From Bacilli bacterium (lineage in GTDB: Bacteria; Bacillota_I; Bacilli_A; RF39; UBA660), in assembly GCA_017511805.1 (NCBI GenBank), contig JAFWJA010000021.1, positions 65,956 through 129,955 of the forward strand: a stretch of DNA of 64,000 bases, written 5' to 3'. The position numbers and the translations under genes were made by a program. Below are positions 18,213 to 46,055 of the stretch, piece by piece. How positions within the stretch are numbered: the first letter of the stretch is position 1; the number at the start of each line of letters is the position of its first letter. The notes beneath the pieces were generated by a model. The model was not told where the DNA came from, did no database searches, and saw only the letters and a program-made list of their open reading frames with translations.

Positions 18213-18231
18213 ATAAACAGAGGTGAAAATT

Positions 18232-21806: not shown

Positions 21807-22073
21807 ATGTCTGCACAGTTTTTGCACAACAATTTAGTTAAATTGTTGTGTAAAAAATTATATTTTTTTAAACTGTTTATACTATAAAGCGTTGATTTTA
21901 AAGGGTTTGTATTAATATGATTAACCCAACTTTTTGGGCCCCTGAAGAGAGCAACTCTAGTCTTTTTATCCACAAGATTTATTATAATATTTTTATAGAT
22001 ATAATAATTTTACTTTTTTGATAGCATAAATTATATAATAAGTGGTATAATGAAAAATAAAGGCAGTGTATTT

Positions 22074-24416
22074 ATGAATATGAAAGTATTATTAAAGAAA
22101 TTTGTAAATATAGTTAGAAAACATTATATTATTATAATGTTCTTTTTGCTATTTTTTTGTACAAGTACAAAGGCATATGCTTTGAGTTTTGAAATAGAGG
22201 ATGTTTCTATTAGTGATAAGAGTTCTACTGTTAGTACTGATACTATTAGTTATACTAGTAATGAAATTAGTAGTAATGTTACATTTAATTCAATAGATGA
22301 TTATGTTGTTTATGATATAAAGATAAAGAATAACGAAGATAAGTTGTTTAAAATAGAATCAATTAGTGATAATACTACTAATGATAATTTAGTTATTGGG
22401 TATGAAAAAGAGTCTGAGATAAAAGCTAAAAGTAGTTCTACTATTAGGTTAATTATGACTTATAAGAATAAACTTGTTAATAAGAATATTACATTAGATA
22501 ATTTAGAAATCACAATTAATTTTGTTGATGAGGGTGGAGAAGATAGTACTATAATAATTAATCCTGTTACAGGAGATAATATAGTTAGTTATTTAGTTTT
22601 ATTAATTATTTCATTAGTTGGTATAGGTTTTATTATAACTAATAAGAGATTAAAGCATTTAAAAATAGGAATTATTATTTTGGCTATATGTGTTATAAGT
22701 ATTCCTTTTGTTACTTTTGCGATTGAAGATTATAAATTTAGTTTTAAATTTAGTGATGTTGTTATTAATGGGGAGTTTGAGGAATATGATATTACGCTAG
22801 TAGATCAAGGGTCAAGCACATCTTTTAAAAGAACTTATGGAGAGGTATTAGGTACATTACCTAGTGCTTTTAAAGTAGGACATACATTTGATGGTTGGTA
22901 TAGTAATAATGTTTTAGTTAATGATAATACTGTTGTTAAGGGTCCTATGACAATAGAATCTAGATTTATTCCTAATAAACATACATTAACTATTAATGAT
23001 AGTGAATATGTTGAAACAGATACTCCTAGTGGAGAATATGATTATGGAACTGAAATAACTTTAAAGGCAAAGAATAGATTAGGCTATACTTTTGTTAAAT
23101 GGTCTAATGATAATACTGATACAGAGATAACATTTACTATTACTAGTGATATAGAAATTGGTCCTATTTATAGTCAAGATGTTTATACTATTATTTTTGA
23201 TTCTAAAGGTGGATCAGATGTTAGTAATAAAACTGGAACATATAATCAAGCATTAGGAACTTTAGAAAATCCTACTAAGCATAAATATAATTTTGATGGT
23301 TGGTATACTTTAGAAGATGGTGGAGAAAAAATAACATCTGATACTAAGATAACAGGTAATACTACTTATTATGCTCATTGGGATCCTATTGGATTTAATA
23401 CAGTATTTTCTCATGAAGGAGCATGTACATTTAATGCATATGATAATATAACTGGAGATGAATGTTCTGAATATTGGGATACTAATTATATAAATACTGG
23501 TATTGCTTTATTTAGTGAGGAAAATAATGGTAAAGATTTTGAGGCAGGATTTACTATAGTATCATATAATTCTGGTGATCAAACTAGTGAAAAGAATCAA
23601 GTATTTATGAGTGATAAAAAAGAAACTGGTGGAACTGCTATTGTACCTGGTATAGTAGCAAGAAGAAGTTCACAACCTAGTACTGCTATAGATATATCAT
23701 TTGGTAAAAATGGTAATAAAACAGGTGTTGATTTAACTACTACAATAAATACAATTAAGATGTTTAGAATTGATGGTAATATATATTATTCTATAAATGA
23801 TGGAGAAAAGGTTTTATTAAATAGTAATATTAGTGATTCAGATGTATTTAATGTACCTTTAACATTTGGTGCAGGATATACAGTTGATGGTTCAATATTA
23901 AGACCTGTTAAAGCTACTTTATCAAATATGTATGTAAAACTAGGTTATGTAGATTTAGATGACTATTATAAGATTACATACGATGGAACTGATGGATCTT
24001 TAGTAACTAATAGTAAATCTATATTAAAAGGTGATAAAATTGGTAATTTCCCTACTGGTACTAAAAATAAAAGTTATATAGCAGGATGGTCTTTAGAAAA
24101 TGGTAGCACTGATTATATTAATTCAAATTATGTACCAGATAGTGATATAACTTTATATGCTACATGGAAAAAGTCTATTGAAGTATTAAATGTTTCTAAT
24201 ACAAGCATTTCATTAAATGTAGGTGAAACAGAAAGTATAGTTATTACTAATCCAACTGAAGTAGAAGAAGAGTACTATTTTACTTCCAGTGATAACTCAA
24301 AAGCATCTGTTGATACAAATGGAGTTATAACTGCGAAAGCATCTGGTTCTGTAAATATATATTTGAGAGGTAGAGCATCAGGTAAATCAAAGACAATTAG
24401 AGTAACAGTTAATTAA
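22074..24416 (+). CDS. Cell-surface protein: signal peptide, about 130-aa N-terminal domain, internal NPVTGD sorting signal + TM + basic stretch, internal signal-peptide-like segment, InlB B-repeat (Listeria-Bacteroides repeat) domains, C-terminal Big_2 domain
   Basis: The ATG at 22050 lies inside the extended -10 TGGTATAAT, so the start is probably ATG 22074 (RBS AAAGG). Repeats GHTFDGWY..., GYTFVKWS... and YNFDGWY...YYAHW / LYATW are of the InlB B-repeat type. C-terminal SLNVGETESIVITN...SVDTNGVITAKASGSVNIY is Big_2-like. Confidence 0.65.
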   Translation: MNMKVLLKKFVNIVRKHYIIIMFFLLFFCTSTKAYALSFEIEDVSISDKSSTVSTDTISYTSNEISSNVTFNSIDDYVVYDIKIKNNEDKLFKIESISDNTTNDNLVIGYEKESEIKAKSSSTIRLIMTYKNKLVNKNITLDNLEITINFVDEGGEDSTIIINPVTGDNIVSYLVLLIISLVGIGFIITNKRLKHLKIGIIILAICVISIPFVTFAIEDYKFSFKFSDVVINGEFEEYDITLVDQGSSTSFKRTYGEVLGTLPSAFKVGHTFDGWYSNNVLVNDNTVVKGPMTIESRFIPNKHTLTINDSEYVETDTPSGEYDYGTEITLKAKNRLGYTFVKWSNDNTDTEITFTITSDIEIGPIYSQDVYTIIFDSKGGSDVSNKTGTYNQALGTLENPTKHKYNFDGWYTLEDGGEKITSDTKITGNTTYYAHWDPIGFNTVFSHEGACTFNAYDNITGDECSEYWDTNYINTGIALFSEENNGKDFEAGFTIVSYNSGDQTSEKNQVFMSDKKETGGTAIVPGIVARRSSQPSTAIDISFGKNGNKTGVDLTTTINTIKMFRIDGNIYYSINDGEKVLLNSNISDSDVFNVPLTFGAGYTVDGSILRPVKATLSNMYVKLGYVDLDDYYKITYDGTDGSLVTNSKSILKGDKIGNFPTGTKNKSYIAGWSLENGSTDYINSNYVPDSDITLYATWKKSIEVLNVSNTSISLNVGETESIVITNPTEVEEEYYFTSSDNSKASVDTNGVITAKASGSVNIYLRGRASGKSKTIRVTVN

Positions 24417-24898: not shown

Positions 24899-24927
24899 AA
24901 CTAATGCTTAGCATTAGTTTTTTTTTG
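24899..24927 (+). terminator. Intrinsic terminator
   Basis: Stem aactaatgc-tta-gcattagtt plus T9. Confidence 0.8.
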
Positions 24928-25047
24928 GTAATAATTAGTAAAGTAATTTTAAAAAACTTGAGTAAAATAAGAATATAGTAGTTTTAGTATTGTTTAAATA
25001 TTGAAATTATGTTATGATTAATTAAGATAGTAGAGGTGTTTGTAGTA

Positions 25048-28000
25048 ATGGTAAAAAGGAAGAATAAGCTATCGATTCTTTTTATTTTTACAGTTATGAT
25101 TTCCGTATTATTTATAGGGAAAGTTTTTGCGTCTTCAAACATCATTAAACTTACAAACATCCAAATAAAAGATCAAACTTCGGGAGTAGATGCGAGTATA
25201 GATAGTTATAATGCGAATACTGTTAATACTAGTAATGATTACCATGCGGTTAATAATTATGTAGAGTATATTTTAACAATATTAAATACTGATTCTAAAC
25301 CATATTCAATTAAGTCTATTAGTGATACTAATACTAATCCGAATATTAAATATGATTATTATGATTATAAAGATAAGATTTTAAAACCTAATTCTACAGT
25401 ACAAATATTAATTAGAGAAACTTATAATACAGAGAATGCTGATTTAACTAATAGAAGTTCTTCAAATAGTGTTAAGTTCTTATTTAATCTGGTTGATGAA
25501 GATGGAGTAGAGATATATTATGATGGTGATAATCCTACTACTGGTGATCAGATTATGAAATATGTTATTATATTTGGAATATCAATAGTAGCGTTAATTG
25601 CTTTAATATTTATAATCTGGAAATTTAAGAAGGGTAAAAAGTTAATGGTTCTTCTACTATTTGGATTATTAATGATACCTGGATTTGTTAGAGCAGAAGA
25701 TGTAGAAGCTACTATAACATTTAATAATAATATCGATTTATTAGATAAAGTAAAAGTAACATTTAATTATAACGGAGTAACTAGAGAGTCTATTATACAA
25801 TACGATAGCAGTGTAACAGAGCCTAGTGTTCCTAATAAGAATGGATATATATTCTTAGGTTGGTTCAATAATGGAAACTTATTTGATTTTAGTACAAGAT
25901 TAACTAGTGATATAACACTTGAAGCTGATTACTTAAAAGAAAGTTATACAATAACATATGACTTAGATGGCGGTAATGCTTCTAATCCTGGTGTATATAA
26001 AGTAACTGAATTACCGATAGCACTTAATAATCCAGTTAAAGATGGATATACATTTATAGGATGGACTGGTAGTAATGGTACAACACCTCAAAAAGACTTA
26101 ACTATTACTAACAAGAGTGAAAATTTAAATTATAAAGCAAATTATACTATAAACACTTATACAATAGCTTATGAAGGATTAACTGAAGCAGAAATGACTA
26201 CTTTAAATAATCCAGATACTTATAATATAGAAGATACAATAACATTAAATAATCCAGCGAATAGATTAGATAATGATGGAGATCTAGCATATAGATTTAT
26301 AGGTTGGAAAAATGATACAAATGATGTTTCAAAAACAATTACTATAACTAATAATACTGGTGTTAAATCATATGAAGCTGTATGGTTACCAGTTGCACCT
26401 GATACTTACACAATTACTTATGAATTACATGATGGAACTATCGATGGTACTAATCCGTTAACTTTTAACAAGTTAACTCCAAGTTTTACCTTACTTAATC
26501 CTACAAAGAGAGGTTACTCATTTGATGGATGGATAGGGAGTAATGGTGATGTACCACAAACTAGTGTTACTATTAATCAAGGAACTAAACAAGATTTAGA
26601 GTTTGAAGCTATATTCACTAAAATAGATTATCCGATAGCATATGATCTAGATGGTGGATCAGTAGCAGTAGCTAATCCTGTTACTTATACAGTAACAGAT
26701 ACAGTTACATTAAATAATCCTACTAAGAGAGGATATAATTTCTTAGGATGGTCTGGTACAGATATAGAGGGAATGAGTACTAGTGTTACTATTCCAGTTA
26801 ATTCTATAGGAGAAAGATCATATAAAGCTAATTATGAAATAATAGAATATACAATTACTTATGATTTAGATGGAGGAGCAGTTACTGGTAATCCAACTAC
26901 TTATAAAGTTACAGATACAATTAATTTATTAGCACCTACTAAATTAGGACATATATTTACTGGTTGGACAGGTAGTAACGGACAAACACCTCAAACTAAT
27001 GTTACTATTACTAATTCAATAGGTAATTTAAGTTATACTGCTAATTATGAAGGTGGAGCATATTATGTTCATTTTGATAAGAATGATTCTTTAGCAACAG
27101 GTACTATGGAAGATGAACAAATGCAAGTAGATCTTTCTAAAGCATTAACATCAAATAAGTTCTATAAGAAAGATTATGTATTTGATGGATGGACTACAAA
27201 TCAAGATGGTACAGGTACTGTATATGCTGATGGTGAATCAGTTACTAATTTAGTTATGAGTGGTACTATTACACTATATGCTAAATGGAGACCTGTTAAG
27301 AAAGCTATATTTGATACAGGATCTAAAGTAAATATTAGAATGAAGACTTTATCTGGACAAAGTGGTGCCGCAACAGGAACTAATAATAGTATTATTAAAA
27401 AGGTTAAGTATGTGGATCCAGTACCACAAGATAAACAAATAACTGATAATATTATATCTAGTGCTGCTAGTCAGTATAAGGTATATATGTGGTATGATTC
27501 AGATGAAAAGATTATATATTATGGTAAAGAAGATGACGCAGATGAGATTTATTTAGGTAAAGATGGAGCATACATGTTCAATTACCTATATGAATGTACA
27601 GAAATAGATACTAACTTTAGAACAGATGATACACAAAACTTTACTCAAATGTTCTGGAGAGACGTTAATCTAGAAGTATTAGATGTTAGTCACTTTAAGA
27701 CAAATGAAGCGAAGAGTTTCTCTTCTATGTTTGGTGAGTGTGCTAAGATTCCATCATTTGATTTAAGTGGATGGGATGTTAGTGGTGCTAAAACATTTAC
27801 ATTTATGTTTAACCAATGTGCATCTATAACAGAGTTAGATTTAACTAATTGGGTTACAACAAGTGCAGAAACTATGAAGAATATGTTTAGTAGTACTACT
27901 AACTTAAGTACTTTAAAAATACCTAATTTTGTAACATCAAATGTTACAGATATGCAAAAGATGTTTGATAACATGCCTAGCATACAATCTTTAGATCTTA

Positions 28001-28407
28001 GTCATTTTGATACATCTAAAGTTACTGCTATGAACCAAATGTTTGAGAACATGACAAGTTTAACAAGTTTAAATATTTCAAGTTTTAATACAGCTAAGGT
28101 TAAGAACATGGAAAAAATGTTTAAAGGAACAAATCAATTACAAACACTTGATATTAGTAGCTTTAATACATCAATAGTTACTAATATGAATAATATGTTT
28201 AGTGAAATGAGTGCATTAACAACAATTTATGTTAGCTCATCATTCACAACTTCTTCAGTTACGTCAACTCCAGTAATGTTTGCATCAGATACAAACTTAG
28301 TTGGTGGAGCTGGAACTCATTGGAGTTCATCAAATACTAAGAAGGATTATGCAAGAATAGATAGACCTGATCTTAGTCAACCAGGTTATTTCACAGAAAA
28401 ACAATAA
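25048..28407 (+). CDS. Large cell-surface protein: signal peptide, N-terminal domain paralogous to the 22074 gene, internal NPTTGD sorting signal + TM + KFKKGKK, internal signal-peptide-like segment (..GFVRA/ED), about 7 InlB B-repeat domains, C-terminal DUF285/'26-residue surface-protein repeat' array
   Basis: RBS AGAGGTG lies 9 nt upstream of ATG 25048. Repeats GYIFLGWFNNG, GYTFIGWTGSNGTTPQ, GYSFDGWIGSNG, GYNFLGWSG, GHIFTGWTGSNG and FDGWTTNQDG...LYAKW. C-terminal repeats FDLSGWDVSGAKTFTFMFNQCASITELDLTNW, SNVTDMQKMF and TSKVTAMNQMF are of the DUF285 type. Confidence 0.7.
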   Translation: MVKRKNKLSILFIFTVMISVLFIGKVFASSNIIKLTNIQIKDQTSGVDASIDSYNANTVNTSNDYHAVNNYVEYILTILNTDSKPYSIKSISDTNTNPNIKYDYYDYKDKILKPNSTVQILIRETYNTENADLTNRSSSNSVKFLFNLVDEDGVEIYYDGDNPTTGDQIMKYVIIFGISIVALIALIFIIWKFKKGKKLMVLLLFGLLMIPGFVRAEDVEATITFNNNIDLLDKVKVTFNYNGVTRESIIQYDSSVTEPSVPNKNGYIFLGWFNNGNLFDFSTRLTSDITLEADYLKESYTITYDLDGGNASNPGVYKVTELPIALNNPVKDGYTFIGWTGSNGTTPQKDLTITNKSENLNYKANYTINTYTIAYEGLTEAEMTTLNNPDTYNIEDTITLNNPANRLDNDGDLAYRFIGWKNDTNDVSKTITITNNTGVKSYEAVWLPVAPDTYTITYELHDGTIDGTNPLTFNKLTPSFTLLNPTKRGYSFDGWIGSNGDVPQTSVTINQGTKQDLEFEAIFTKIDYPIAYDLDGGSVAVANPVTYTVTDTVTLNNPTKRGYNFLGWSGTDIEGMSTSVTIPVNSIGERSYKANYEIIEYTITYDLDGGAVTGNPTTYKVTDTINLLAPTKLGHIFTGWTGSNGQTPQTNVTITNSIGNLSYTANYEGGAYYVHFDKNDSLATGTMEDEQMQVDLSKALTSNKFYKKDYVFDGWTTNQDGTGTVYADGESVTNLVMSGTITLYAKWRPVKKAIFDTGSKVNIRMKTLSGQSGAATGTNNSIIKKVKYVDPVPQDKQITDNIISSAASQYKVYMWYDSDEKIIYYGKEDDADEIYLGKDGAYMFNYLYECTEIDTNFRTDDTQNFTQMFWRDVNLEVLDVSHFKTNEAKSFSSMFGECAKIPSFDLSGWDVSGAKTFTFMFNQCASITELDLTNWVTTSAETMKNMFSSTTNLSTLKIPNFVTSNVTDMQKMFDNMPSIQSLDLSHFDTSKVTAMNQMFENMTSLTSLNISSFNTAKVKNMEKMFKGTNQLQTLDISSFNTSIVTNMNNMFSEMSALTTIYVSSSFTTSSVTSTPVMFASDTNLVGGAGTHWSSSNTKKDYARIDRPDLSQPGYFTEKQ

Positions 28408-28428
28408 AAACTATAAAGGAGGACACTT

Positions 28429-31400
28429 ATGGATACAGTAAAACATTATATTAAATATTTTGTTTTAGCTATCGCTTTATTACTACTAGTTAATATTGGT
28501 AGTGCTAAAGCTGCTACTGACGTTATATTGAAATTTACAGATGCCGGTATTGAAGAAACTGTATCTGGAAGTGGATATATAATAAACGGTACATCTCTTG
28601 AAATAATAAATTCTGGAACATATATTATTAAAGGAAGTTGTACTGAAGGTAATATTTCCGTTAAAAAGGGAACAACAGGTGTAACAATAGTTTTAGAAGA
28701 CTTACAATTATCGTCTTCTAAAACTGCACCTATTACAGTTAAAAAAGATGGAGCACAGGTTGATTTCTGGTTAAATGGACATTCTGTTATCGTAGATAAT
28801 GAGGATCCATCTCAAGAATTCTCTCCTGATCCAGAAGTAGCAGATCTATATGAAGGAGCTGCTATAAAAGTAAAATCTGGTTCTAGTGTCTCATTTGCAG
28901 GTGCTGGAATTATAGATATTGAAAGTAGACATAATAACGCTATTAAAGGTGCATCAGAAGCATCAATTACATTTAATACAGGTATCTTTAATATAAGTGC
29001 AGGTAATAGTGGTGTATCTTGTGATGGTACTATTACTCTTAACAATGGACACTTAACTATAGATGCTGCTAATGAAGGTATTAAATTATCTCCTAATGAA
29101 GATGATACTACATCACTAGCTAAATTCGTTAATAATGGTGGAAAAGTTGTTATTTCTGCAGGACAAGATGGTATACAAGCACAAGGTGATATAGAAATAA
29201 ATGGATGGTCTGAAATAGAAATAGATTCTAAAGAGGATGCTATCCAAACTAGATCAAACTTTACTATGACTAATGGTAGAGTAGTAATTCATACATTTGA
29301 AGGATATAATACACCTAACTTTGATCCAGATATTATGAGTGCTAAAGGTATTAAAGCAGCTAAAACAGATGAACAAACAGAAGATGCCACTAATACAATT
29401 AATATCACAGGTGGAACTATATATATAGATTCAAGTGATGATGCTATTCACTCAGATGCATATGTTAATATTACTAGAGGTACTGTTACAGCATTATCTG
29501 GTGATGATGGTATACATGCTGATACTAAATTAGTAATAGGTAGTCAAGGTGGTCTTAGTAGAGACCCAGAAATAACAATAAGAGAAAGTGTTGAAGGTAT
29601 TGAAGCTGGAAACATTTATGTATATTCTGGTAAAACTAGTGTATATGCAATAGATGATGGTATGAACGCTGCTGGTGGAGCTTCATCAGGTGGTGGAAAA
29701 GAACATGGTGAACACTTTAATCCAGACACAGGACAAATGGAAGAAAATTATGCTATATATGTATATGGTGGAAATATCTATGTTAACTGTGAAGGTGATG
29801 GATTAGATGCCAATGGTAGTTTATATTTATATGGTGGTACACAAATAATTTATCACCAAGATGCTCAAGGTAATAACTCAGCTCTAGATAGAGACCATAA
29901 ATTAGTTATTGATGGAGCTACAGTATTTGCAGCAGGTGGTGTTGCAGATAATGGACGTATTGATTCAACAGGTAGTTCACAAAAAATAATAATTGATGAT
30001 ACAACAGATTATTCTGCTAATAGTAAGGTAGTTGTTAGTGATAATGGAACTCCAGTATTTAATGATCAAATACCAAAGAGATCAGTTTATACATTCTATT
30101 CGAGTCCAAGTCTTGATAATGGTTCTATTAGTACAACAAGTACAATAGCAGATTTAAATAATAATCCATGGAATCATAATTTTGATGATGGTGTTATAAC
30201 TACACCTGCTACTCCTAGTACACCAGGAGTTATAACTTATACATGTCAAGATGATGGTTATACAGAATCTAAAACATATTTCTATAAAGGTGAAGTAACA
30301 TTTACTTTCGTTAATAAAACAAATGGACAAGCAAGTATAACAGTAGGTTCTACTACAAGTAGTACAAACTTTGTAACTAACGAACCAGATGAATTTATAT
30401 ATATGACTACTACTGAAGACGTAGAGTTAATAGCTACTAAAGATGGATTAGATTATCAAACTATGTTCCCAGAATCAACAAGTGATCCAAATACTGTTAG
30501 ATTCCATGCAAATCCATCTACTACAAAGACATTCTATGTAGTATTAGATGGTGATGTTAATATGGATGGAGTAGCAGATATAGATGACTCTACTATTATA
30601 GCTAGATCATTATTATCTAGTAGTGATCCTAGATATGTAGAATTATCATTAATACAAAAAGTTTTAGCGGATATTAATGATGATGGATTAATAAATTCTC
30701 ATGATGGTTTAGCAATTATAAAAGATTTAACAGGAACAGATAAATATGATGAAAGTTACTTTGGTATTACATCTATAGATCCAGTTATATTAGATGGAGA
30801 ACATGATGGAGAAGCAACAGTTTCATTCTATACTAAGAAAGCTATATTTATAGACGCAATGGATGGTAGATATTCACCATCAAAAGAATATCCAAGTACA
30901 AATGGATATCTTGAATTAAGTGATATTCAAGGTTCATATGATCAAGTACAATATTCATTAATAGATGTTAATAGTGGATTTGCTGGCGCAGTTGATACTA
31001 ACGGATTAAGCATTCCAAAAGACACTGTACTAGTTACATTAAAATATAAAGTTGATAAAGATACTCCAACTGGTACATATCCAGTTAAATTAAGAATTGA
31101 TTCAGTAACTGCTCATGATTCAAAGATACCAACATCATTTGAAATAAAAGCAGATGTAATTGTTAAAGGACAAAATACTCCAACAAGTGCATTCTTTGTT
31201 GCAGATGATGGAGTAGCAGGTATTGATGTATATCATACACAAGATTATTCTCATTCAGATGAAGTAGATGTTACTTCTACTGCTATTAGGGATTCTGTTA
31301 CTGGAGAATTAATTCCACCTGGTGGAGAAGGACAATTAAATTTCTTAGTTAAACCAAAAATGGGTTATATAGTAACAAATGTTGAAGTAACTCCATCAGC

Positions 31401-34400
31401 ACACTTTAAACAAGTAAAAGGACCTGCTGATACAGATCAACCAAATACTTTTAGAGTTACTAAAGTAACTGGTGATATAGAAGTAGTAGTTACTACTAAA
31501 AAAGCTAGTGAATTTACTGCAACATTTGATATTGATGAAAATAAAATAGAAGCAATTGATGTATATTATACACAAGATTATACTACTCCAGATGAAACAG
31601 GAGTAACAGAGACTCTAGTAAGAAATGGAGATACTGGTGCAATAGATATATCTGGTGATGGACAAGTTAACTTCAAAGTTATACCAAAACCAGGATATAA
31701 AGTAGATTCTGTTAAAGTATCTGGTACTTATAAGAATATTAAAGATCAAGGCAATAATATTTATCGTGTTACTAAGGTTAGTGGAGATATTATAATTAAG
31801 GTTAAGGGAGCTGAAAAAGAAACAATAGTTCCTGAAGTAACTGGATATTCTCCAAGTCATGTTTATACTGGTTCTAAGATAAAACCAGCTATAACAGTTA
31901 ATATCGCAGGTACAGAAACTACATTAGTTAAGAATACAGATTATACTATTGAATATGGTACTAATAAAGATGTAGGTACTGGTACAATTACTATTAATCC
32001 AGTAATGACAAGTGCATATTTATTTAATCCAACTACTGTTACATTTGATATTACTCCATATACATTAACAAGTTCTAATGTTGAAGTACCAAGTGCAATT
32101 GTTTATACAGGAGATCCATTATCTCCAGAAGTAACAGTTACTCATGGAAGTACTACTTTAGTAGAAGGTACAGACTATGAAGTATCATATGCTAACCAAG
32201 ATGGCATGGTAGGAGAATCTGTAAATGTTATTGTTACAGGTAAAGGAAACTTTACTGGTGTAGTAAATGATAAAGAAGTACCTATTACTGCTAAAGCTAC
32301 TCAAACTATAGTATTTGAACATGATGAAATAACTAAGATATATGGTAGTGATTTCACACAAGTAGCTAACTTAGTTGTAGGTGATGGTACTATTACATAT
32401 TCATCATCTAACCCAGCAGCTGCTACTGTTGATCCAGTAACTGGTGCTGTAACATTAGTAGCAACAGGACAAACTTATATCCGTGCTACTGCTAGTGAAA
32501 CAGAAAACTATGCTGAAACAACTGTAAGATATAAATTAATTGTTAAGAAAGCAGATATAGCTATAACAGGTGTTACTGTATCTGATAAAGATTATGATGG
32601 TACTAAGACTGCTACTGTTACTGGTGTAACATTTAGTGGATTAGTTAAATCAGAAGAGTTAGTAATGGGTACTGATTATACAGTAACAGGATTATTTAGC
32701 GATGCTGAAATAGGTACTGATAAAGAAGTAACTGTTACAGTAGATTTATCTGTAGCAACTTTATCTAGATATGCATTAGCTAATAATACCGCAATAGGTA
32801 CTGCAAGTATTAATCCAATTTCTATAACAGAAAATGATATAACATTAAGTGATAGTACTTATGAATATGATGGTACTGAAAAGACTCCAACAGTTTCAGT
32901 AGTAACAGGTGGACAAACATTAGTAGAAAATGTTGATTATAAAGTAAGTTATATAGATAATGTTAATGAAGGAGAAGCATACGCTGTTATTGTTGGTATT
33001 GGTAATTATAGTACTAATACTCCAATAACTAAAGTATTTACTATTACTCCTAAAACTATAACTCCAACTATTGAAGCTATAGAAGATCAAGAGTTCACTG
33101 GTTCTGAAGTTCAACCAGCAATAGTAGTTAAAGATGGAACTACTACATTAGTAGAAGGTACTGATTATACAGTTTCTTATGCTAATAACATTGTAATAGG
33201 TACAGCAGATGTAACAATTAGTCCAGTTGATGGAGGTAATTATACATTTGATGATACTGATCCTAGTGCTAGTACAACATTTGATATAGTTCCATATACT
33301 ATTAAAGAAGAAGATATAACACTAGAATATACATTTGTTAAATATGATGGAAGTGCTAAAACACCATCTGTTACAGTAACATTAAATGGTAATGTATTAA
33401 CTGAAAATACTGATTATACAGTAGCATACAGTAATAACAATGTAGTTACTGAAACTGCTAAAGTAACAGTAACAGGACTTGCTCCTAATTATACTGGTAC
33501 TCCAGAAGTATTCTTTGAAATATCTGATAAAGACTTATTAACAATAAGTGGAATTAATAATCAATCAGTAACATATACTGGTGAAGAAGTAGAATTAGAA
33601 GGAACATTAACTGTTTCAGAAAATACAGATAATATAACTGTAGATGATTTAACAGTTAAATATTATGATAGTTCAGATAATGAAATAGAAAGACCAACTA
33701 ATGTAGGTGCTTACTATGTAGTATATAGTTATGATGGAGCTAATTATAAAGGTGAAACTAGAGTAGACTTTGAAATAACTAAAAAGGAATCTAGTATACC
33801 TAGTGAAGTAAGTTCTAACTTACAAGGTGTAGTTCATGATAGTTTAAATACAATAGTATTTACTACATCAGGACTTGCTTGGGAAGATGGAACTACTAGT
33901 ATAGCTCCAGAATCTAATACATATCCAGCTATATATACTGAAAACAATGATACAATTAATTACACTACAATAAATGTTAATATACCAGTTTATGGTAAAC
34001 AAGTAATTGATATTAATACAAGTGTTGATGGTGCAGGAGGAACAATTACAGACTCTATGAATGATGTAGTTGAAGGGACTCCTAAAACTATTACTTTAGA
34101 TCCTAATGAAGGATATGAAGTAGATGCAGTATATATCAATAATGAAGAAGTACCTGTTTCTAATAATCAATTAGAAATAACAGCGGGTTCATCTGATATG
34201 AATATTGTTGTTAAATTTAAAACTACTGAATATAGTATGAATATATCTGGTGATAATTCATATGTAGATCCATATGGTATTATTAATGTAGAACATAATT
34301 CTGCAATGGAATTAACTATATCTGCTAAACCAGGATATAGGTTATCATCAGTAAAAGTTAATAATGAAGAAAAAATAACAGATTTGACTAGTGATAAATT

Positions 34401-34884
34401 AACAGTAGGTAATATTACAGATGATACTAAAGTTTCTGCTACTGCAGAAAGAATTACTTATGAAGTAATTGAAGGTGCTAGACAAGAATATGTTATTAAT
34501 AGAGATACATATGCTAGATTTGTAATAAATGCTGATTATGATTTATTTGAAACAGGTGGAAAAGTATTAGTAGATGAAAAAGAAGTAGATGCTAAGTATT
34601 ATACTTCTGAATCTGGTAGTACAGTAATAGTATTTAACAGAGAATTCATGGATAGCTTATCATTAGGTGCTCATTCATTTAGAGTAGAATTTAATGATGG
34701 TGGTGAAGCATCTTGTACATTTAGAGTAGCGTTATTGAAATATCAAGATAAAGAAGATATTGTTAATCCTACTACTGGTGATACTATTACTAAAGTAATT
34801 AATATATTTATTATTAGTTTAATAGTAATAATTGGAATTATTTTAATAGCAAATAGAAAGACTATTAAGAAATTATTTAAATAA
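28429..34884 (+). CDS. Giant (2151 aa) sortase-anchored surface protein: signal peptide, beta-helix (Cthe_2159-like) domain, type-I dockerin, cohesin-like module, Ig-like and multiple MBG (YGX-type) repeats, C-terminal NPTTGD sorting signal + TM + basic tail
   Basis: RBS AAGGAGG 21 nt after the upstream stop, so it is co-transcribed. The dockerin has two 12-residue Ca-binding-like loops, DVNMDGVADIDD and DINDDGLINSHD. The cohesin-like stretch is VTLKYKVDKDTPTGTYPVKLRIDSV. MBG repeats follow the pattern TLVEGTDY(E/T)VSYAN...G.A.V.VTGKGNYTG. The C-terminus is VNPTTGDTITKVINIFIISLIVIIGIILIANRKTIKK. Confidence 0.65.
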   Translation: MDTVKHYIKYFVLAIALLLLVNIGSAKAATDVILKFTDAGIEETVSGSGYIINGTSLEIINSGTYIIKGSCTEGNISVKKGTTGVTIVLEDLQLSSSKTAPITVKKDGAQVDFWLNGHSVIVDNEDPSQEFSPDPEVADLYEGAAIKVKSGSSVSFAGAGIIDIESRHNNAIKGASEASITFNTGIFNISAGNSGVSCDGTITLNNGHLTIDAANEGIKLSPNEDDTTSLAKFVNNGGKVVISAGQDGIQAQGDIEINGWSEIEIDSKEDAIQTRSNFTMTNGRVVIHTFEGYNTPNFDPDIMSAKGIKAAKTDEQTEDATNTINITGGTIYIDSSDDAIHSDAYVNITRGTVTALSGDDGIHADTKLVIGSQGGLSRDPEITIRESVEGIEAGNIYVYSGKTSVYAIDDGMNAAGGASSGGGKEHGEHFNPDTGQMEENYAIYVYGGNIYVNCEGDGLDANGSLYLYGGTQIIYHQDAQGNNSALDRDHKLVIDGATVFAAGGVADNGRIDSTGSSQKIIIDDTTDYSANSKVVVSDNGTPVFNDQIPKRSVYTFYSSPSLDNGSISTTSTIADLNNNPWNHNFDDGVITTPATPSTPGVITYTCQDDGYTESKTYFYKGEVTFTFVNKTNGQASITVGSTTSSTNFVTNEPDEFIYMTTTEDVELIATKDGLDYQTMFPESTSDPNTVRFHANPSTTKTFYVVLDGDVNMDGVADIDDSTIIARSLLSSSDPRYVELSLIQKVLADINDDGLINSHDGLAIIKDLTGTDKYDESYFGITSIDPVILDGEHDGEATVSFYTKKAIFIDAMDGRYSPSKEYPSTNGYLELSDIQGSYDQVQYSLIDVNSGFAGAVDTNGLSIPKDTVLVTLKYKVDKDTPTGTYPVKLRIDSVTAHDSKIPTSFEIKADVIVKGQNTPTSAFFVADDGVAGIDVYHTQDYSHSDEVDVTSTAIRDSVTGELIPPGGEGQLNFLVKPKMGYIVTNVEVTPSAHFKQVKGPADTDQPNTFRVTKVTGDIEVVVTTKKASEFTATFDIDENKIEAIDVYYTQDYTTPDETGVTETLVRNGDTGAIDISGDGQVNFKVIPKPGYKVDSVKVSGTYKNIKDQGNNIYRVTKVSGDIIIKVKGAEKETIVPEVTGYSPSHVYTGSKIKPAITVNIAGTETTLVKNTDYTIEYGTNKDVGTGTITINPVMTSAYLFNPTTVTFDITPYTLTSSNVEVPSAIVYTGDPLSPEVTVTHGSTTLVEGTDYEVSYANQDGMVGESVNVIVTGKGNFTGVVNDKEVPITAKATQTIVFEHDEITKIYGSDFTQVANLVVGDGTITYSSSNPAAATVDPVTGAVTLVATGQTYIRATASETENYAETTVRYKLIVKKADIAITGVTVSDKDYDGTKTATVTGVTFSGLVKSEELVMGTDYTVTGLFSDAEIGTDKEVTVTVDLSVATLSRYALANNTAIGTASINPISITENDITLSDSTYEYDGTEKTPTVSVVTGGQTLVENVDYKVSYIDNVNEGEAYAVIVGIGNYSTNTPITKVFTITPKTITPTIEAIEDQEFTGSEVQPAIVVKDGTTTLVEGTDYTVSYANNIVIGTADVTISPVDGGNYTFDDTDPSASTTFDIVPYTIKEEDITLEYTFVKYDGSAKTPSVTVTLNGNVLTENTDYTVAYSNNNVVTETAKVTVTGLAPNYTGTPEVFFEISDKDLLTISGINNQSVTYTGEEVELEGTLTVSENTDNITVDDLTVKYYDSSDNEIERPTNVGAYYVVYSYDGANYKGETRVDFEITKKESSIPSEVSSNLQGVVHDSLNTIVFTTSGLAWEDGTTSIAPESNTYPAIYTENNDTINYTTINVNIPVYGKQVIDINTSVDGAGGTITDSMNDVVEGTPKTITLDPNEGYEVDAVYINNEEVPVSNNQLEITAGSSDMNIVVKFKTTEYSMNISGDNSYVDPYGIINVEHNSAMELTISAKPGYRLSSVKVNNEEKITDLTSDKLTVGNITDDTKVSATAERITYEVIEGARQEYVINRDTYARFVINADYDLFETGGKVLVDEKEVDAKYYTSESGSTVIVFNREFMDSLSLGAHSFRVEFNDGGEASCTFRVALLKYQDKEDIVNPTTGDTITKVINIFIISLIVIIGIILIANRKTIKKLFK

Positions 34885-34925
34885 TAGGACTAGCTAATGC
34901 TAGTCCTTGTTTGTATGGAGGACTT

Positions 34926-36122
34926 ATGGAAGAAAAAAAGAAACCTACAAAGAAAAAAAGTACTAGTTCTGTAACTAAGAAAAAGACTACTACAGTAAAG
35001 AAGACTACTACTCCTAAAAAGAAAACAACAACTACAAAGAAAAGTACACCTACTAAAAAGGTAACTACTGTTAAAAAGACTACTGTAGTAAAAAAGACAA
35101 CTACTCCTAAGAAGAAACCAGTTGTTAAAAAGGTTGTAGTAAAAAAAGAAGTAGAGCCAGTTGAAGAACATAAAGTAGTAAAAATAGTAGTTAAAAGAAA
35201 ACCTAGTACTAGAACTAAAAAGAAGGTTACTGATAGTAAAACTAACGCTATTAATGATATAAATAAGATTATTAATAGTATTGAAGATGTAGCAGAGAAA
35301 TATGATGAAAAAGTAGAATATACTCCAGAACCAGAAGTTCATGAAAAACCAAAAATTGAATTTGATGATATAACTCCTGCAGAGGAAGATTATAAGTATG
35401 AGGGACCAGCAGAGGAACCAAAGATTACTTTTGATGATATAGCTCCAGCAGAGGAAGACTATAAGTATGAGGAACCAGCAGAGGAACCAAAGATTACTTT
35501 TGATGATATAGAACCTGCAGAAGAAGATTTTAAGTATGAAGGTCCAGTTATAGAAGAAACAAATACTATTTTTGATGAACCTATGGATGAAGTAGTTATA
35601 GAACAAGCTACTAAAGAAAAATTAACACCTCAAACAGACTCTATAGAAGAACAAGTAGATATAACTCCTGTAAAAACTAAAACAAAGTTAAAACCAGCTT
35701 CTAAAATAGTTATATTCTTGTTATTACTTGGGTTAATAGGTTTTGCTGTATATATTGGTATGGATCATAAAAAAGTAGGTAAAGAGATAGTTAATAATTC
35801 AAGTTATTCTAATAATCTTGGTGTAGTTGAATTTAAATGTGTTAATAAAAAATTAAACAATGTTATTATCAATAGTAATATGATTAATGACATGAAGAAT
35901 AAAGATAGTAAATATACTAAAAAAATAAAAGCTGTACTTAAAGATACAAATAGTAATTCATATTTAGTTACTAATATAAAAAATGCTTTAGAATTAAAAA
36001 TAATTACTGAAAATGATACATTAACAGAATACTATTACAAGGTATTAGGTTTTGATAATTTAGATGATTTAATAAGTTTATTTGAGGAAACAATAGATAG
36101 CTTAAAAAAGAACCAAAAATAG
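34926..36122 (+). CDS. Lys/Thr-rich basic low-complexity protein with three tandem 23-aa repeats and one TM segment
   Basis: RBS GGAGG at 34917-34921. N-terminal KKTTT..KKKTTTTKK low complexity. Repeats PKITFDDIAPAEEDYKYEEPAEE x3. TM segment IVIFLLLLGLIGFAVYIGM. Confidence 0.55.
   Translation: MEEKKKPTKKKSTSSVTKKKTTTVKKTTTPKKKTTTTKKSTPTKKVTTVKKTTVVKKTTTPKKKPVVKKVVVKKEVEPVEEHKVVKIVVKRKPSTRTKKKVTDSKTNAINDINKIINSIEDVAEKYDEKVEYTPEPEVHEKPKIEFDDITPAEEDYKYEGPAEEPKITFDDIAPAEEDYKYEEPAEEPKITFDDIEPAEEDFKYEGPVIEETNTIFDEPMDEVVIEQATKEKLTPQTDSIEEQVDITPVKTKTKLKPASKIVIFLLLLGLIGFAVYIGMDHKKVGKEIVNNSSYSNNLGVVEFKCVNKKLNNVIINSNMINDMKNKDSKYTKKIKAVLKDTNSNSYLVTNIKNALELKIITENDTLTEYYYKVLGFDNLDDLISLFEETIDSLKKNQK
35352..35558 (+). 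repeat. 3 x 69-bp near-identical tandem coding repeat
   Basis: The unit aagattacttttgatgatatagctccagcagaggaagactataagtatgaggaaccagcagaggaacca is repeated directly with few substitutions. Confidence 0.8.
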
Positions 36123-38736: not shown

Positions 38737-39963
38737 ATGATTGTAATTGACGCAGGTCATGGAGGAGTAGATAAAGGTGCTTCAGGTAATGGTTTATTTG
38801 AAAGTGACTATACTTTATTAATAAGTAAATATATGAAAGATAGGTTTGATGAACTAGGTATTCCGGCTAAATTAACCAGAGATAGCGATGAAACATTAAC
38901 TCCAAATGAAAGAGTAAATAGAATATTAAGTGCTTATGGTAATGATCCAGGAGTTTTAGTTATTTCTAATCATTTAAATGCTGGTGGTGGAGAAGGGGCA
39001 GAAGTTATATATGCACTTCGAAATAATGATACTTTAGCAAAATCCATCCTTGAAGGATTAGGAAGTGCAGGTCAACCTGTTAGAAAAGTGTACCAAAGAA
39101 GGTTACCAAGTGATCAAACTAAGGATTATTACTTTATCCACAGAAATACTGGAGTAACAGAACCATTAATTATAGAATATGGCTTCATAGATAACCAAAA
39201 TGACGCCAAAAGGATCAAAAACAATTATAAAAAGTATGCTGAAGAGGTAGTTAAAACTATTGCTAATGCAAAGGGATTTACGTACACACCACCAAGAGTT
39301 CAAAATGAATACGTAGTAGAACGTGGTGATACGCTTTGGAATATATCAAAAAAGCTAGATACTACTGTTGAAGAGATAAAAAAACTGAATAATTTGAATA
39401 GTAATTTACTTTATATTGGTCAAGTATTAAAAGTACCAAATTATAATACTGTTACTGACACTAATATAACTTATGTTGTTAAGAAGGGAGATACTCTTTA
39501 TTCAATCGCATCTAAAAATAATATATCTGTTAATAGGTTAAAAGAAGTAAATAATCTAAAAACTGATGATCTATCTATTGGTCAATCTTTAATAATTCCA
39601 GAAACAGAATCTATTGTTCTTCCAAAAGAAGATGAAATAATAAATGAAGGAAGCGTTTACGTAGTAGAAAAAGGAGATACTTTATATTCAATCGCTAAGA
39701 AATTTAATACTACTGTGGACAAGTTAAAAGAAACAAACTCTATTATTAATGATATCCTAACTATTGGTATGAATTTGTTAATACCTTCATCAGGTTCTAC
39801 CTTACAAGATATCATTATACATACGGTAGAACCAGGTGATAGTTTGTGGTCTATATCTAGAAAATATAATACTACAGTTAATGATATAAAACAGTTAAAT
39901 AATTTAGATACTGATTTATTAGTAGTAGGACAAGAACTACAGGTCAAAAGAAATACAAAATAG
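38737..39963 (+). CDS. N-acetylmuramoyl-L-alanine amidase (Amidase_3/CwlD-like catalytic domain) with four LysM repeats
   Basis: MIVIDAGHGGVDKGASGNG. LysM repeats YVVERGDTLWNISKK, YVVKKGDTLYSIASK, YVVEKGDTLYSIAKK and HTVEPGDSLWSISRK. RBS GGGGAGG; -10 TAGTATAAT. Confidence 0.85.
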   Translation: MIVIDAGHGGVDKGASGNGLFESDYTLLISKYMKDRFDELGIPAKLTRDSDETLTPNERVNRILSAYGNDPGVLVISNHLNAGGGEGAEVIYALRNNDTLAKSILEGLGSAGQPVRKVYQRRLPSDQTKDYYFIHRNTGVTEPLIIEYGFIDNQNDAKRIKNNYKKYAEEVVKTIANAKGFTYTPPRVQNEYVVERGDTLWNISKKLDTTVEEIKKLNNLNSNLLYIGQVLKVPNYNTVTDTNITYVVKKGDTLYSIASKNNISVNRLKEVNNLKTDDLSIGQSLIIPETESIVLPKEDEIINEGSVYVVEKGDTLYSIAKKFNTTVDKLKETNSIINDILTIGMNLLIPSSGSTLQDIIIHTVEPGDSLWSISRKYNTTVNDIKQLNNLDTDLLVVGQELQVKRNTK

Positions 39964-39977: not shown

Positions 39978-40016
39978 ATATTTATGATATAATACTTCGT
40001 GTTTGAAGGGGATATA

Positions 40017-41159
40017 ATGTTAGAAAGAACACAGTTTAAAAAAGATGAAAAAAGAAATATATTCATTGATAAAGATGCATTAGTAGAAAGAAAAGAGTCT
40101 TTAGATGATTTTGTTACTAATGAACCATTACTTAATAAATCAAAGTTTAGTAAATCAGATTTTCCACAAGAAATTAAGTTTAATAATGCAATTGAAGGAA
40201 TTGATGATGATGTTAATGAGATTAGTTCATTATTAAGCAGAATGTTTGTTAGTGTTAATAGAGATAAAAAAAGAATTACTAATGTATATAAAGCATATAA
40301 ATATATTTTAAGTAAAAAGAATATAAATAAGGATTCATTAAAGAAATTATATTCTATATTAAGTGATGGATTATTACAGTCATGTGATTCTAGAAGGATG
40401 GGAGAGTATTATAGACAGGGTGATGTTTATATAATGAGAGGCATAAGTATGGAAAGATTTTTCCGTGGAGTAGAGCCTGAACATGTTTCTGAATATATGG
40501 ATATATTATTTGATTATATAAATAATGATAATAGTGATAAAACAGATATAGATTCATTTATTAAGTCTCAAATAATACATGCTTATTGTGTATATATTCA
40601 TCCATATTTTGATGTTAATGGTAGAACATCTAGAACTCTAGGTATGTGGTATTTATTAAATAAAAAAGACCTAAATTATATTACATTTAATAGATCAATA
40701 TCATTTTTAAAGAGTAAATATGAAAAAAGTCTTATTGAATTAAGAGATAGGGGAGATATGACTCCATTTTTGAAATATATGTTAGATGCTGAAAGATTGG
40801 AATTAGAAAAAGAATATATCATTAATAATGTTGAAAAGAATATTGGTAAAAAATTAACCAATGAAGAATATCTTACTTTAGAATATTTTTTAAGTTTAAA
40901 TGGTAGATTAACTTTACTTGATTTAATACATATTTATAATGATTACAATGCTAAGAAAAAGAAGTTAGAAGTATTAGATGAAAAGATAAATCCATTATTA
41001 GAAAAAGGAATATTAAAAAAGACTTTTGATACTAAACATTTTATATCATCTGATCTACCTAATTCTAGAATAGTATTAAATAGAGAATTATTAGATGTAG
41101 ATGAAAAGAAAATTAAAAAACTAAGACTTGAACATTATACAAAAGAAAACCAAGATTAA
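40017..41159 (+). CDS. Fic-family protein with non-canonical motif HPYFDVNGRTSR
   Basis: H-P-Y-F-D-V-N-G-R replaces the canonical H-P-F-x-(D/E)-G-N-G-R (Gly changed to Val before NGR). RBS GAAGGGG upstream of ATG 40017; extended -10 TGATATAAT. The ORF track starts at GTG 39999. Confidence 0.7.
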   Translation: MLERTQFKKDEKRNIFIDKDALVERKESLDDFVTNEPLLNKSKFSKSDFPQEIKFNNAIEGIDDDVNEISSLLSRMFVSVNRDKKRITNVYKAYKYILSKKNINKDSLKKLYSILSDGLLQSCDSRRMGEYYRQGDVYIMRGISMERFFRGVEPEHVSEYMDILFDYINNDNSDKTDIDSFIKSQIIHAYCVYIHPYFDVNGRTSRTLGMWYLLNKKDLNYITFNRSISFLKSKYEKSLIELRDRGDMTPFLKYMLDAERLELEKEYIINNVEKNIGKKLTNEEYLTLEYFLSLNGRLTLLDLIHIYNDYNAKKKKLEVLDEKINPLLEKGILKKTFDTKHFISSDLPNSRIVLNRELLDVDEKKIKKLRLEHYTKENQD

Positions 41160-45340: not shown

Positions 45341-45344
45341 ACTC

Positions 45345-46055
45345 TTACCATTCTATTTCTTTAACACTAATAGGTTTTTTATTTAGAATTATATCCTCTG
45401 TCCTTCCATTTCTAAATTTTATTACTCTATCAGCCATAGGTGCTACTGCACTATTATGAGTTATTATTATAGTTGTAATTTTATCTTTTCTACAAGTCTT
45501 TTCTAGTAGTTCTAATATTTGTTTACCAGTTTTATAATCTAGAGCACCAGTTGGTTCATCCGCTAAAAGTATTTTAGGCTTTCTTGCTATTGCTCTTGCT
45601 ATAGATACTCTTTGTTGTTGACCACCAGACATTTGTGAAGGAAAGTTATCCATTCTATCTTCTAGACCTACTTTTTTTAATGCTTCTTTGGCGTCCATTG
45701 GATTCTTACACATTTGTGTACCTAATTCTATATTTTCTAATGCAGTTAAGTTTTGAACAAGGTTATAAAATTGAAAAACAAATCCTATATCATTTCTTCT
45801 ATATTTAATTAATTCTTTTTCTTTTATTTTTGTAATATTTACTTCATCTACTATTACATTCCCAGAGGTTACTTCATCCATACCACCTAATATATTTAGG
45901 CAAGTTGATTTACCTGAACCAGATTGACCTAGTATAACAACTAATTCACCTTTTTCAATCTCAAAACTAGCTTTATCTAAAGCCTTTAAATCCACTTCAC
46001 CCATTTTGTATATTTTATTAACATCTTTAAATTCTATATAGGCCATATTAGTCAC
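45345..46055 (-). CDS. ABC transporter ATP-binding protein (MacB-type partner)
   Basis: Walker A GQSGSGKST, signature LSGGQQQRVSIARA, Walker B LLADEPTGALD and H-loop ITHN. Confidence 0.9.
   Translation of the reverse strand: MTNMAYIEFKDVNKIYKMGEVDLKALDKASFEIEKGELVVILGQSGSGKSTCLNILGGMDEVTSGNVIVDEVNITKIKEKELIKYRRNDIGFVFQFYNLVQNLTALENIELGTQMCKNPMDAKEALKKVGLEDRMDNFPSQMSGGQQQRVSIARAIARKPKILLADEPTGALDYKTGKQILELLEKTCRKDKITTIIITHNSAVAPMADRVIKFRNGRTEDIILNKKPISVKEIEW

Follow-up and report, generated by a model that had tools for sequence, protein, structure and literature searches.

How does a surface protein come to carry both partners of a cohesin–dockerin pair in one chain, and what do they do there? 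This question is raised by a gene in a 64,000-nucleotide stretch of contig JAFWJA010000021.1 (positions 65,956 to 129,955) from a Bacilli bacterium, referred to below as the window. The gene encodes a protein of 2151 amino acids which is secreted and C-terminally anchored, with a head of a carbohydrate-binding family placed on a long immunoglobulin (Ig)-like stalk; a dockerin and a cohesin abut at the boundary between the two. The position and length of its open reading frame (ORF) match exactly those given in an earlier note on this DNA, which had proposed self-oligomerising or scaffold-recruiting surface arrays. We arrived at a different answer, to which, taken as a whole, we assign a probability of about 0.6: the gene would be an in-frame fusion of two neighbouring genes, one for a dockerin-bearing cargo and one for an anchoring cohesin protein, and the two modules would now hold each other within a single chain.

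A dockerin and a cohesin at the boundary of head and stalk

The head matches the Pfam family Cthe_2159 (PF14262) with 134.3 bits (cut-off 25.8, E 6e-39) over profile positions 2-262 of 262, which confirms across the whole domain the Cthe_2159-like beta-helix claimed in the earlier note. It is also the best conserved region among the orthologues described below (60% mean pairwise identity). Judging from the description of the Cthe_2159 family alone, the head may bind polysaccharide, and we consider it likely that the whole protein is a fibrillar carbohydrate adhesin of the cell surface. Between head and dockerin lies a beta-module, X, for which a scan of the isolated segment against a local copy of Pfam gave no matching family (coordinates of all features are listed in Table 1). 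Its motif NKTNGxAxVxIG recurs in free cargo proteins from other loci, built either as Cthe_2159-dockerin or as S8 protease-dockerin, and the latter align by blastp to residues 609-767 of the 2151-aa protein, that is, to X and dockerin together. The X module of the S8 proteins bears a precomputed DUF7743 annotation, which is weak at locus L013 and not so marked at locus L018.

The dockerin scores 21.6 bits against Pfam PF00404 when the whole protein is scanned (cut-off 22.9) and 28.9 bits when residues 701-776 are scanned alone, and the best matches to it in a sequence search of the PDB are cellulosomal dockerins. Both loops quoted in the earlier note, DVNMDGVADIDD (residues 709-720) and DINDDGLINSHD (residues 748-759), are present and intact in their calcium-binding positions: ligand positions 1, 3, 5, 9 and 12 are canonical in each (with the glycine at position 6 included, D709-N711-D713-G714-D717-D720 and D748-N750-D752-G753-N756-D759). 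Among the 25 orthologues, positions 1, 6 (Gly) and 12 are invariant in both loops, while positions 3, 5 and 9 are D, N, S or T with the exception of one Glu and one Gly. In the AlphaFold2 (AF2) model of dockerin and cohesin together, the dockerin helices span residues 718-727, 741-747 and 757-764, at a predicted local distance difference test score (pLDDT) above 90. The dockerin is a genuine, type I-like three-helix F-hand module, and its putative binding to a cohesin would depend on Ca2+.

The cohesin required several lines of evidence. Pfam Cohesin (PF00963) matches its region partially, at 18.8 bits, which is below the cut-off of 24.1. A profile of the 25 orthologous modules (alignment A1) matched four cohesins in the PDB at E values of 0.012-0.16; the top match, 5n5p_A, is in register over profile positions 82-138. 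The AF2 model of the module has nine strands (pLDDT 91.7, predicted template modelling score (pTM) 0.83), and all of the top 13 matches obtained with this model in a Foldseek search of the PDB are cohesin chains. An exhaustive search of 1.84 billion representatives with the A1 profile yielded 198 proteins at E<=0.001, many of which carry a cohesin-type module directly after the signal peptide. When 77 of these 198 relatives were scanned with Pfam, a dockerin was found in 20, Cohesin PF00963 in 8 (best E 1e-51) and SLH anchors in 6; the residues matched by the A1 profile overlap with the Pfam Cohesin match in P0123 and in P0119, where it exceeds the cut-off with 24.6 bits. Moreover, a dockerin-bearing gene adjoins five out of six loci of stand-alone cohesin homologues. 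Divergent cohesins are known to escape detection by hidden Markov models (HMMs) (PMC13463774, PMC11557425). By its predicted fold and by these transitive profile matches, the module is a real, very divergent cohesin, as the earlier note had supposed; that residues 776-916 are just another Ig/Big-type stalk domain is hardly credible, and we rejected this idea on the fold evidence, namely the cohesin chains returned by Foldseek. Neither of the two outcomes that the earlier note named as refuting its view, a plain Ig/Big domain here or dockerin loops unfit to bind calcium, was thus obtained. A Foldseek search of the PDB with the dockerin–cohesin didomain returned single cohesin chains, and no solved chain in it spans both modules. 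The putative dockerin-binding surface of this cohesin would be the canonical 8-3-6-5 face.

In the stalk, the two tandem repeats that follow the cohesin gave no significant Pfam family when scanned as an isolated segment, and they resemble InlB B-repeats by eye. The earlier note spoke of MBG repeats further along, and six repeats with the signature TDYxVxY are indeed there, but it is the YDG family that is significant in Pfam (38.2 bits, cut-off 25), whereas MBG_3 is weak (14.9 bits in a segment scan, cut-off 25). The accurate label for these repeats is "YDG/MBG-type".

The fused modules belong to the same subfamilies as their split partners

At related loci the same parts are found as two adjacent genes, 15-20 nt apart. 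The first encodes a signal peptide, a Cthe_2159 domain or an S8 protease, an X module and a C-terminal dockerin, and the second encodes a signal peptide, an N-terminal cohesin, the same stalk and a sortase-type signal. Such split cassettes often continue with a conserved small gene and a gene for a class B sortase, which at L013 matches TIGR03064 with 177 bits (cut-off 153.75).

The closest non-orthologous relative of the cohesin module is the stand-alone protein P0116 (1401 aa) of locus L013. A signal peptide of its own is followed by a cohesin at residues 29-166, and the protein ends in an NPQTSD motif with a membrane helix; its residues 30-1374 align to residues 778-2120 of the fused protein with 48% identity over 1354 residues. 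On the other side of the junction, blastp aligned residues 40-747 of the 750-residue head-dockerin protein of L016 to fused residues 28-775 (39% identity), and residues 45-789 of its counterpart from L014 to fused residues 32-763 (41%). Free dockerins score 64-72 bits against the profile of the fused-family dockerins, including 69.7 bits for the dockerin of the L013 protease (residues 751-817 of 828). Their ends, "...SAYxxLTW*", align to the fused "...DKYDE" (alignment A4), and the mature N-termini of stand-alone cohesins, "SSDYSLT...", correspond to the fused "ESYFGIT". Fused modules and split partners fall into the same subfamilies, and they meet at an exact junction: the split head-dockerin ends at fused residue 775, and the mature stand-alone cohesin starts at residue 778. 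As the ends of the split proteins match these two residues, it is very likely that the 2151-aa gene is an in-frame fusion of a cognate pair, a cargo-dockerin gene and an anchoring-cohesin gene.

The fused form is represented by 25 orthologues from uncultured low-GC Bacilli (the host genome has a GC content of ~26%), with identities of 44-100% and with both dockerin and cohesin in every one, which speaks for a real and old fusion, and it is seen in no shorter Cthe_2159 homologue. A genome collection scanned with the full protein gave no match; scanned with the PRPP synthetase of this Bacilli/Mollicutes-like host, it gave distant metagenome-assembled genomes at 71% identity or less, a Bacilli one from sheep rumen and one of an uncultured "Clostridium sp.", so that the species is absent from that collection. 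The names of the records (XIEF21..., Sheep_Rumen) suggest a ruminant gut as habitat. An artefact of assembly or a frameshift was considered and rejected: the orthologues come from independent samples, all keep a continuous frame, and none has a signal peptide at the junction. One orthologue, P0007 (2281 aa), has a long K/T-rich tail beyond the membrane helix, which may stem from another fusion, with the K/T-rich downstream gene, or from a frameshift into it.

In a neighbour-joining (NJ) tree of the shared cohesin-stalk region, rooted on the stand-alone protein P0125, the stand-alone P0126 also falls outside the fused clade, and P0116 joins the unresolved base of that clade. A single fusion, starting from a split ancestor, could give such a topology. 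One could also imagine the reverse order of events, with the fused gene being ancestral and the two-gene cassettes derived from it by fission, and the place of P0116 at that basal node would agree with such a history. We regard it as very improbable, however: the split cassettes vary in cargo, in anchor (SLH, LPXTG-like, SPKTG, NPQTS) and in genome GC (26% to 54%), the fused form is confined to one family of 25 orthologues, and fission would require a signal peptide and a ribosome-binding site to be gained repeatedly, exactly at the domain boundary.

Further parts of the split cassettes can be followed around the fused gene. The ORF of 403 aa that lies downstream of it has a C-terminal domain of ~120 aa which is homologous to the 161-165-aa gene that follows the anchoring-cohesin gene in L013, L014 and L018; no family matched this ORF. 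We view its g164-like domain as a remnant of the cassette, which supports the fusion origin. The rest of the same ORF consists of a Lys/Thr-rich N-terminus of ~100 aa, three acidic repeats of ~25 aa (ITFDDIxPAEEDYKYE) and one membrane helix.

Subtilisin-like proteases of the type S8-X(DUF7743)-dockerin are a recurrent second cargo of the split cassettes (L014:11362-13857, L013:95-2581, L018:9715-12225), and this gene seems to be gone from the fused lineage, at least from the neighbourhood of the fused gene. An indexed search with the X-dockerin profile (A4) gave seven matches, all of them small dockerin proteins and none a new type of cargo. A TraG/VirD4-like coupling protein of type IV secretion systems (49122-50432, minus strand) and an M48/HtpX-like peptidase (2162-3751, minus strand) are encoded in the window, and both families also adjoin the split cassette of L014 (L014:1-2107), together with a serine recombinase. 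This hints that the adhesin cassettes travel on conjugative elements.

A proposed contact in cis, its alternatives and known systems

The fusion could have proceeded as follows. In the ancestral state, which would still be the widespread one, the gene of a secreted cargo-dockerin protein would lie 15-20 nt upstream of the gene of a monovalent anchoring scaffoldin, and the cargo would hang on the cell by a non-covalent, Ca-dependent contact of cohesin and dockerin. Once stop codon, spacer and second signal peptide were lost, the dockerin C-terminus would run into the mature N-terminus of the cohesin (residues 775/778). If dockerin and cohesin have kept their contact within the fused chain, the two would form a rigid, Ca-stabilised joint fixing the carbohydrate-binding head atop a stalk of ~1200 residues, and an assembly device would have turned into a structural clamp. 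We propose this last step tentatively, as its chances, on predicted models, seem to us a little short of even.

Three observations argue for the cis contact. The AF2 model of the didomain (residues 702-916) is rigid, with a pLDDT of 92.4, a pTM of 0.86 and a linker pLDDT above 90, whereas independent domains arranged as beads on a string would be expected to score lower. The fused dockerins are without the internal two-fold symmetry that free dockerins keep: the identity between their two repeats is 0.17-0.46 (mean 0.29), as opposed to 0.79, 0.58, 0.42 and 0.63 in four free dockerins. Finally, in the clade P0001-P0012 the recognition positions 10-11 of dockerin repeat 2 are "SH" in 11 of 12 members, while the equivalent residues of repeat 1 drift.

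Several points speak against our interpretation. A pTM of 0.86 would be compatible with a packing in cis on or off the canonical 8-3-6-5 cohesin face; moreover, the AF2 model was built on 25 related sequences, and AF2 tends toward packing adjacent domains. The comparison of symmetry is based on four free dockerins. Mean pairwise identity is 51% for the whole protein but falls to 43% in the dockerin and 42% in the cohesin, which places both with its least conserved parts and would fit relaxed constraint as well. As to the fusion itself, the NJ tree is without support values and has a trifurcation as its basal node, and one fission (P0116) also fits it.

The low conservation leads to the idea that both modules are relics, serving as mere stalk spacers with no contact between cohesin and dockerin. 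They do evolve faster than head and stalk, and other parts of the cassette have decayed, as seen from a pseudo-sortase at locus L003, from degenerate sorting motifs in several orthologues and from the missing S8-dockerin gene. Still, we give this idea little credence: loop positions 1, 6 and 12 are invariant in the 25 orthologues despite identity down to 44%, the recognition residues of repeat 2 are conserved within clades, and neither module has been lost in any orthologue.

Another way of reading the two modules is that binding occurs in trans, between the dockerin of one molecule and the cohesin of the next, giving reciprocal dimers, daisy-chain surface arrays or aggregation of cells. The dockerin of Ruminococcus bromii Amy4 recognises the cohesin of its own protein, for which autoaggregation has been proposed (PMC4611034); in the fused protein the Ca ligands of the dockerin are conserved, and the gap of ~13 residues between dockerin helix 3 and cohesin strand 1 could sterically bar a canonical complex in cis and force swapping. 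On the other hand, AF2 gives a single compact didomain with an ordered linker (pTM 0.86), a tethered partner is present at a very high effective concentration, and the lost symmetry of the dockerin fits one fixed orientation. We consider binding in trans somewhat unlikely, and we do not favour the arrays proposed in the earlier note, as the modules are a cognate pair fused head-to-tail without a linker and predicted as one rigid unit.

It is also conceivable that the modules are not each other's partners, so that the cohesin stays open to other dockerin cargo (an S8 protease-X-dockerin protein, for instance), or the dockerin docks elsewhere, or both. Split cassettes commonly pair one cohesin with two cargos, such as the Cthe_2159-dockerin and S8-dockerin proteins of L014, and the presence of a dockerin in 20 of the 77 scanned proteins with this type of cohesin recalls adaptor scaffoldins. 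This seems to us quite unlikely, however, as family profiles find no other dockerin or cohesin in the window, the annotation within +/-10 kb of two orthologues lists none, and the cognate dockerin lies five residues away in a didomain predicted to be compact.

A more elaborate idea combines both kinds of contact: a mechanically strong, Ca2+-dependent latch within the single chain could open under load or at low Ca2+ and re-pair in trans, and the protein would then switch between a rigid monomer and a cross-linked mesh; in the same scenario, the decay of the sortase and the sorting motif would mark a shift from wall-linked to membrane-anchored display. We consider this scenario unlikely.

Among known systems, a close parallel in layout is Ruminococcus flavefaciens ScaE, whose cohesin binds the X-dockerin dyads of ScaB and of CttA, a cellulose-binding protein. 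There, separate polypeptides of a cellulolytic clostridial lineage take part in a large multi-enzyme cellulosome held by an LPXTG anchor, whereas here, in an uncultured low-GC Bacilli lineage, cargo and anchor form one chain with an NPxTGD motif, a stalk of ~1200 aa and no enzymes. The general principle, a sortase-anchored monovalent cohesin that binds X-dockerin cargo, is on record for R. flavefaciens (PMC11557425). Amy4 resembles the fused protein in having cohesin and dockerin in one chain outside a cellulose-degrading system, but it differs in being an amylase for which aggregation in trans is proposed; in the literature searched we found no description of its modules as an abutting pair derived from fused cargo and anchor genes. 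Adaptor scaffoldins of Acetivibrio and Pseudobacteroides likewise combine both types of module; their dockerin, however, differs in specificity from their own cohesins and plugs into another scaffoldin, whereas the two modules studied here are a cognate pair of one cassette. A protein of the Coh2-Doc1-Coh1 layout is known from a non-cellulolytic bacterium of the Planctomycetes-Verrucomicrobia-Chlamydiae (PVC) group (PMC11557425). The view of the earlier note that a dockerin and a cohesin in one polypeptide would be unusual outside cellulolytic clostridia is thus too strong, since both non-cellulosomal pairs and two-module proteins have been described (PMC4611034, PMC11557425).

As for the head, fibrillar adhesins headed by a beta-solenoid (a Cthe_2159-related cluster and the binding region of the Lactobacillus reuteri serine-rich repeat protein, SRRP) share with our protein a signal peptide, an N-terminal adhesive beta-helix of the pectate-lyase type, a repetitive stalk and a C-terminal anchor (PMC9210967). 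In the survey describing them, cohesin and dockerin have 0 occurrences (PMC9210967); head and stalk of these adhesins are joined by ordinary peptide linkage. The cohesin, in turn, resembles ruminococcal cohesins found with AlphaFold, which keep the fold while their sequences lie below detection by Pfam and InterPro (PMC13463774); those belong to Ruminococcus scaffoldins, whereas the present subfamily occurs in Bacilli-like metagenome-assembled genomes and other low-GC Firmicutes, in minimal cassettes. The window holds one dockerin and one cohesin, both in the same protein, and no dockerin-bearing enzyme; the protein uses cellulosomal modules, yet it is not to be filed as a cellulosome.

Non-cellulosomal pairs, two-module proteins, sortase-anchored monovalent cohesins, HMM-invisible cohesins and beta-solenoid-headed adhesins are all already known. 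On the other hand, we found in the literature searched no natural fusion of a cargo-dockerin to a cohesin-anchor protein, no minimal cohesin-dockerin cassette with a class B sortase, and no cohesin-dockerin system in this lineage. From such a "Rosetta-stone" fusion one can read off, with no need to assay binding, which dockerin subfamily is the partner of which HMM-invisible cohesin subfamily, both for the fused protein and for the related split cassettes. The fusion also points to a portable display cassette of low-GC gut Firmicutes and Bacilli, composed of a cargo-X-dockerin protein, a cohesin-stalk-anchor protein, a small membrane protein and a class B sortase; being unrelated to cellulose degradation, this cassette widens the known uses of cohesin-dockerin modules. 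As Pfam misses the cohesin module, systems of this kind are under-counted in metagenome annotation. Should the contact in cis prove real, a module for assembly would have become a structural joint, and nature would provide an equivalent of the single-chain cohesin-dockerin constructs that are engineered for use in force spectroscopy and protein engineering.

Anchor, operon and neighbouring genes

Table 1. Features of the 2151-aa protein gene and its surroundings, by position in the window, followed by gene orders at related split loci (aa, amino-acid residues; Doc, dockerin; Coh, cohesin; LRR, leucine-rich repeat)
Feature	Coordinates	Strand	Basis
Terminator-like hairpin and T-run at end of preceding gene, upstream edge of two-gene unit	24899..24919	+	hairpin scan
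Upstream gene of the putative operon, 1123-aa secreted protein with Flg_new/InlB B-repeats and DUF285 (LRR-like)	25036..28407	+	Pfam
Ribosome-binding site AAAGGAGGA in 21-nt intergenic spacer	28415..28423	+	sequence
Intact surface-protein ORF, 2151 aa	28429..34884	+	ORF call
Signal peptide, aa 1-28 (...GSAKA/A)	28429..28512	+	sequence, hydrophobicity
Right-handed beta-helix head, Cthe_2159 carbohydrate-binding family, aa 29-560	28513..30108	+	Pfam, best stretch aa 54-361
X module, aa ~605-701, X-Doc dyad with dockerin	30241..30531	+	blastp, alignment with cargo proteins
Dockerin, aa 702-771, two F-hand Ca loops, three helices	30532..30741	+	Pfam, PDB sequence matches, ligands, AF2
Fusion junction, aa 772-777 (YDESYF)	30742..30759	+	blastp end points, alignment A4
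Divergent cohesin, aa 776-916, nine-stranded beta-sandwich (predicted)	30754..31176	+	AF2, Foldseek, profile bridge
Two tandem ~105-aa beta-repeats, aa 917-1125	31177..31803	+	sequence
Stalk, aa 1126-1795: six YDG/MBG-type repeats, Big_2 (aa 1317-1365), YDG (aa 1375-1454)	31804..33813	+	Pfam, sequence
Membrane-proximal stalk, aa 1796-2111: Flg_new_2 repeat (aa ~1866-1931), C-terminal beta-domain	33814..34761	+	Pfam; colinear with P0116 up to aa 2120
NPTTGD, aa 2112-2117, class-B-sortase-like sorting motif, possibly relic	34762..34779	+	sequence
C-terminal membrane helix (aa 2122-2142) and basic tail NRKTIKKLFK	34792..34881	+	hydrophobicity, sequence
Strong hairpin (9 bp, 5 GC) two bases past stop, probable terminator	34886..34907	+	hairpin scan
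Downstream 403-aa ORF, C-terminal domain (35763-36119) homologous to small cassette gene	34911..36122	+	tblastn/blastp E 4e-15 to 1e-17
L013: S8 protease-X-Doc (828 aa), 15 nt, P0116 (Coh-stalk-NPQTSD), 164-aa gene, class B sortase			
L014/L015: Cthe_2159-X-Doc (806 aa), 20 nt, P0125 (Coh-stalk-IPQTGE), 161-aa gene, S8-X-Doc			
L016: Cthe_2159-X-Doc (750 aa), 17 nt, P0126			
L018: P0128 (Coh-YDG stalk-SPKTGT), 165-aa gene, S8-DUF7743-Doc, sortase			
L019 (54% GC): giant protein with C-terminal dockerin, 20 nt, P0130			

Sorting signals of class B sortases follow a consensus of the NP(Q/K)(T/S)(N/G/S)(D/A) kind, succeeded by a hydrophobic helix and a basic tail. NPTTGD fits this pattern with T at the variable position, and helix and tail are in place, so the elements of the sortase anchor named in the earlier note are there. 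The enzyme, on the other hand, is missing from view: library and profile scans found no sortase gene in the window, and the L013 sortase gave no tblastn match in L001 or L002. A true SrtB adjoins the stand-alone P0116 with its NPQTSD (L013), and a sortase is found at L018 too, while the sorting motifs of the fused orthologues vary (NPxTGD, NPKTND, NPKTSD, QSNTND, or none).

The gene that follows the fused orthologue P0011 (L003:16515-17828, also L004:11987-13300) encodes a histone-H1-like K/T-rich N-terminus, a membrane helix and a sortase-B-like domain. None of the catalytic residues survives in this domain: His is missing through a deletion, Ile stands in place of Cys, and the Arg motif is gone. 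The domain scores 116 bits against a cut-off of 154 and looks like a catalytically dead pseudo-sortase. Because of this homologue, and because the window has no sortase, processing at NPTTGD appears doubtful in the fused lineage, and the protein is probably anchored in the membrane by its C-terminal helix. The window also encodes an N-acetylmuramoyl-L-alanine amidase (Amidase_3) with four LysM repeats (38737-39963), which suggests either that the host has peptidoglycan or that this is a prophage lysin, and so bears on possible wall anchoring.

The adhesin gene follows the gene of the 1123-aa protein at a distance of 21 nt. No plus-strand terminator was found in this spacer, which contains a ribosome-binding site, hairpins flank the pair on both sides, and the DUF285-adhesin pairing is kept at L001-L004, in three different neighbourhoods. 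From this arrangement we infer a two-gene operon of the DUF285/InlB-repeat gene and the adhesin gene, in agreement with the co-transcription assumed in the earlier note. The 1123-aa protein gave no match to the family profiles of dockerin or cohesin, and it was rejected as a binding partner for want of either signal.

Directly upstream of the operon, a secreted 788-aa protein with Flg_new/InlB B-repeats and a C-terminal Big_2 domain is encoded at 22050-24416, and because it adjoins the operon, the region can be viewed as an island of surface proteins. Further upstream lies a cluster of defence or toxin type, with a GmrSD-type restriction enzyme (16471-18057), a helix-turn-helix (HTH)-Fic protein (18223-19158) and a TrlF/Ppl-like AAA ATPase (19169-21511), and a second Fic protein is encoded at 39999-41159. 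The gene at 58822-60297 matches the NCBIfam "UU173 family" at 1e-19, below the family cut-off; we took this name as hinting at an affinity to Mollicutes. A MacB/FtsX-type ABC exporter pair, consisting of a 1146-aa permease with two FtsX domains and an ATPase, occupies 41900-46055 on the minus strand.

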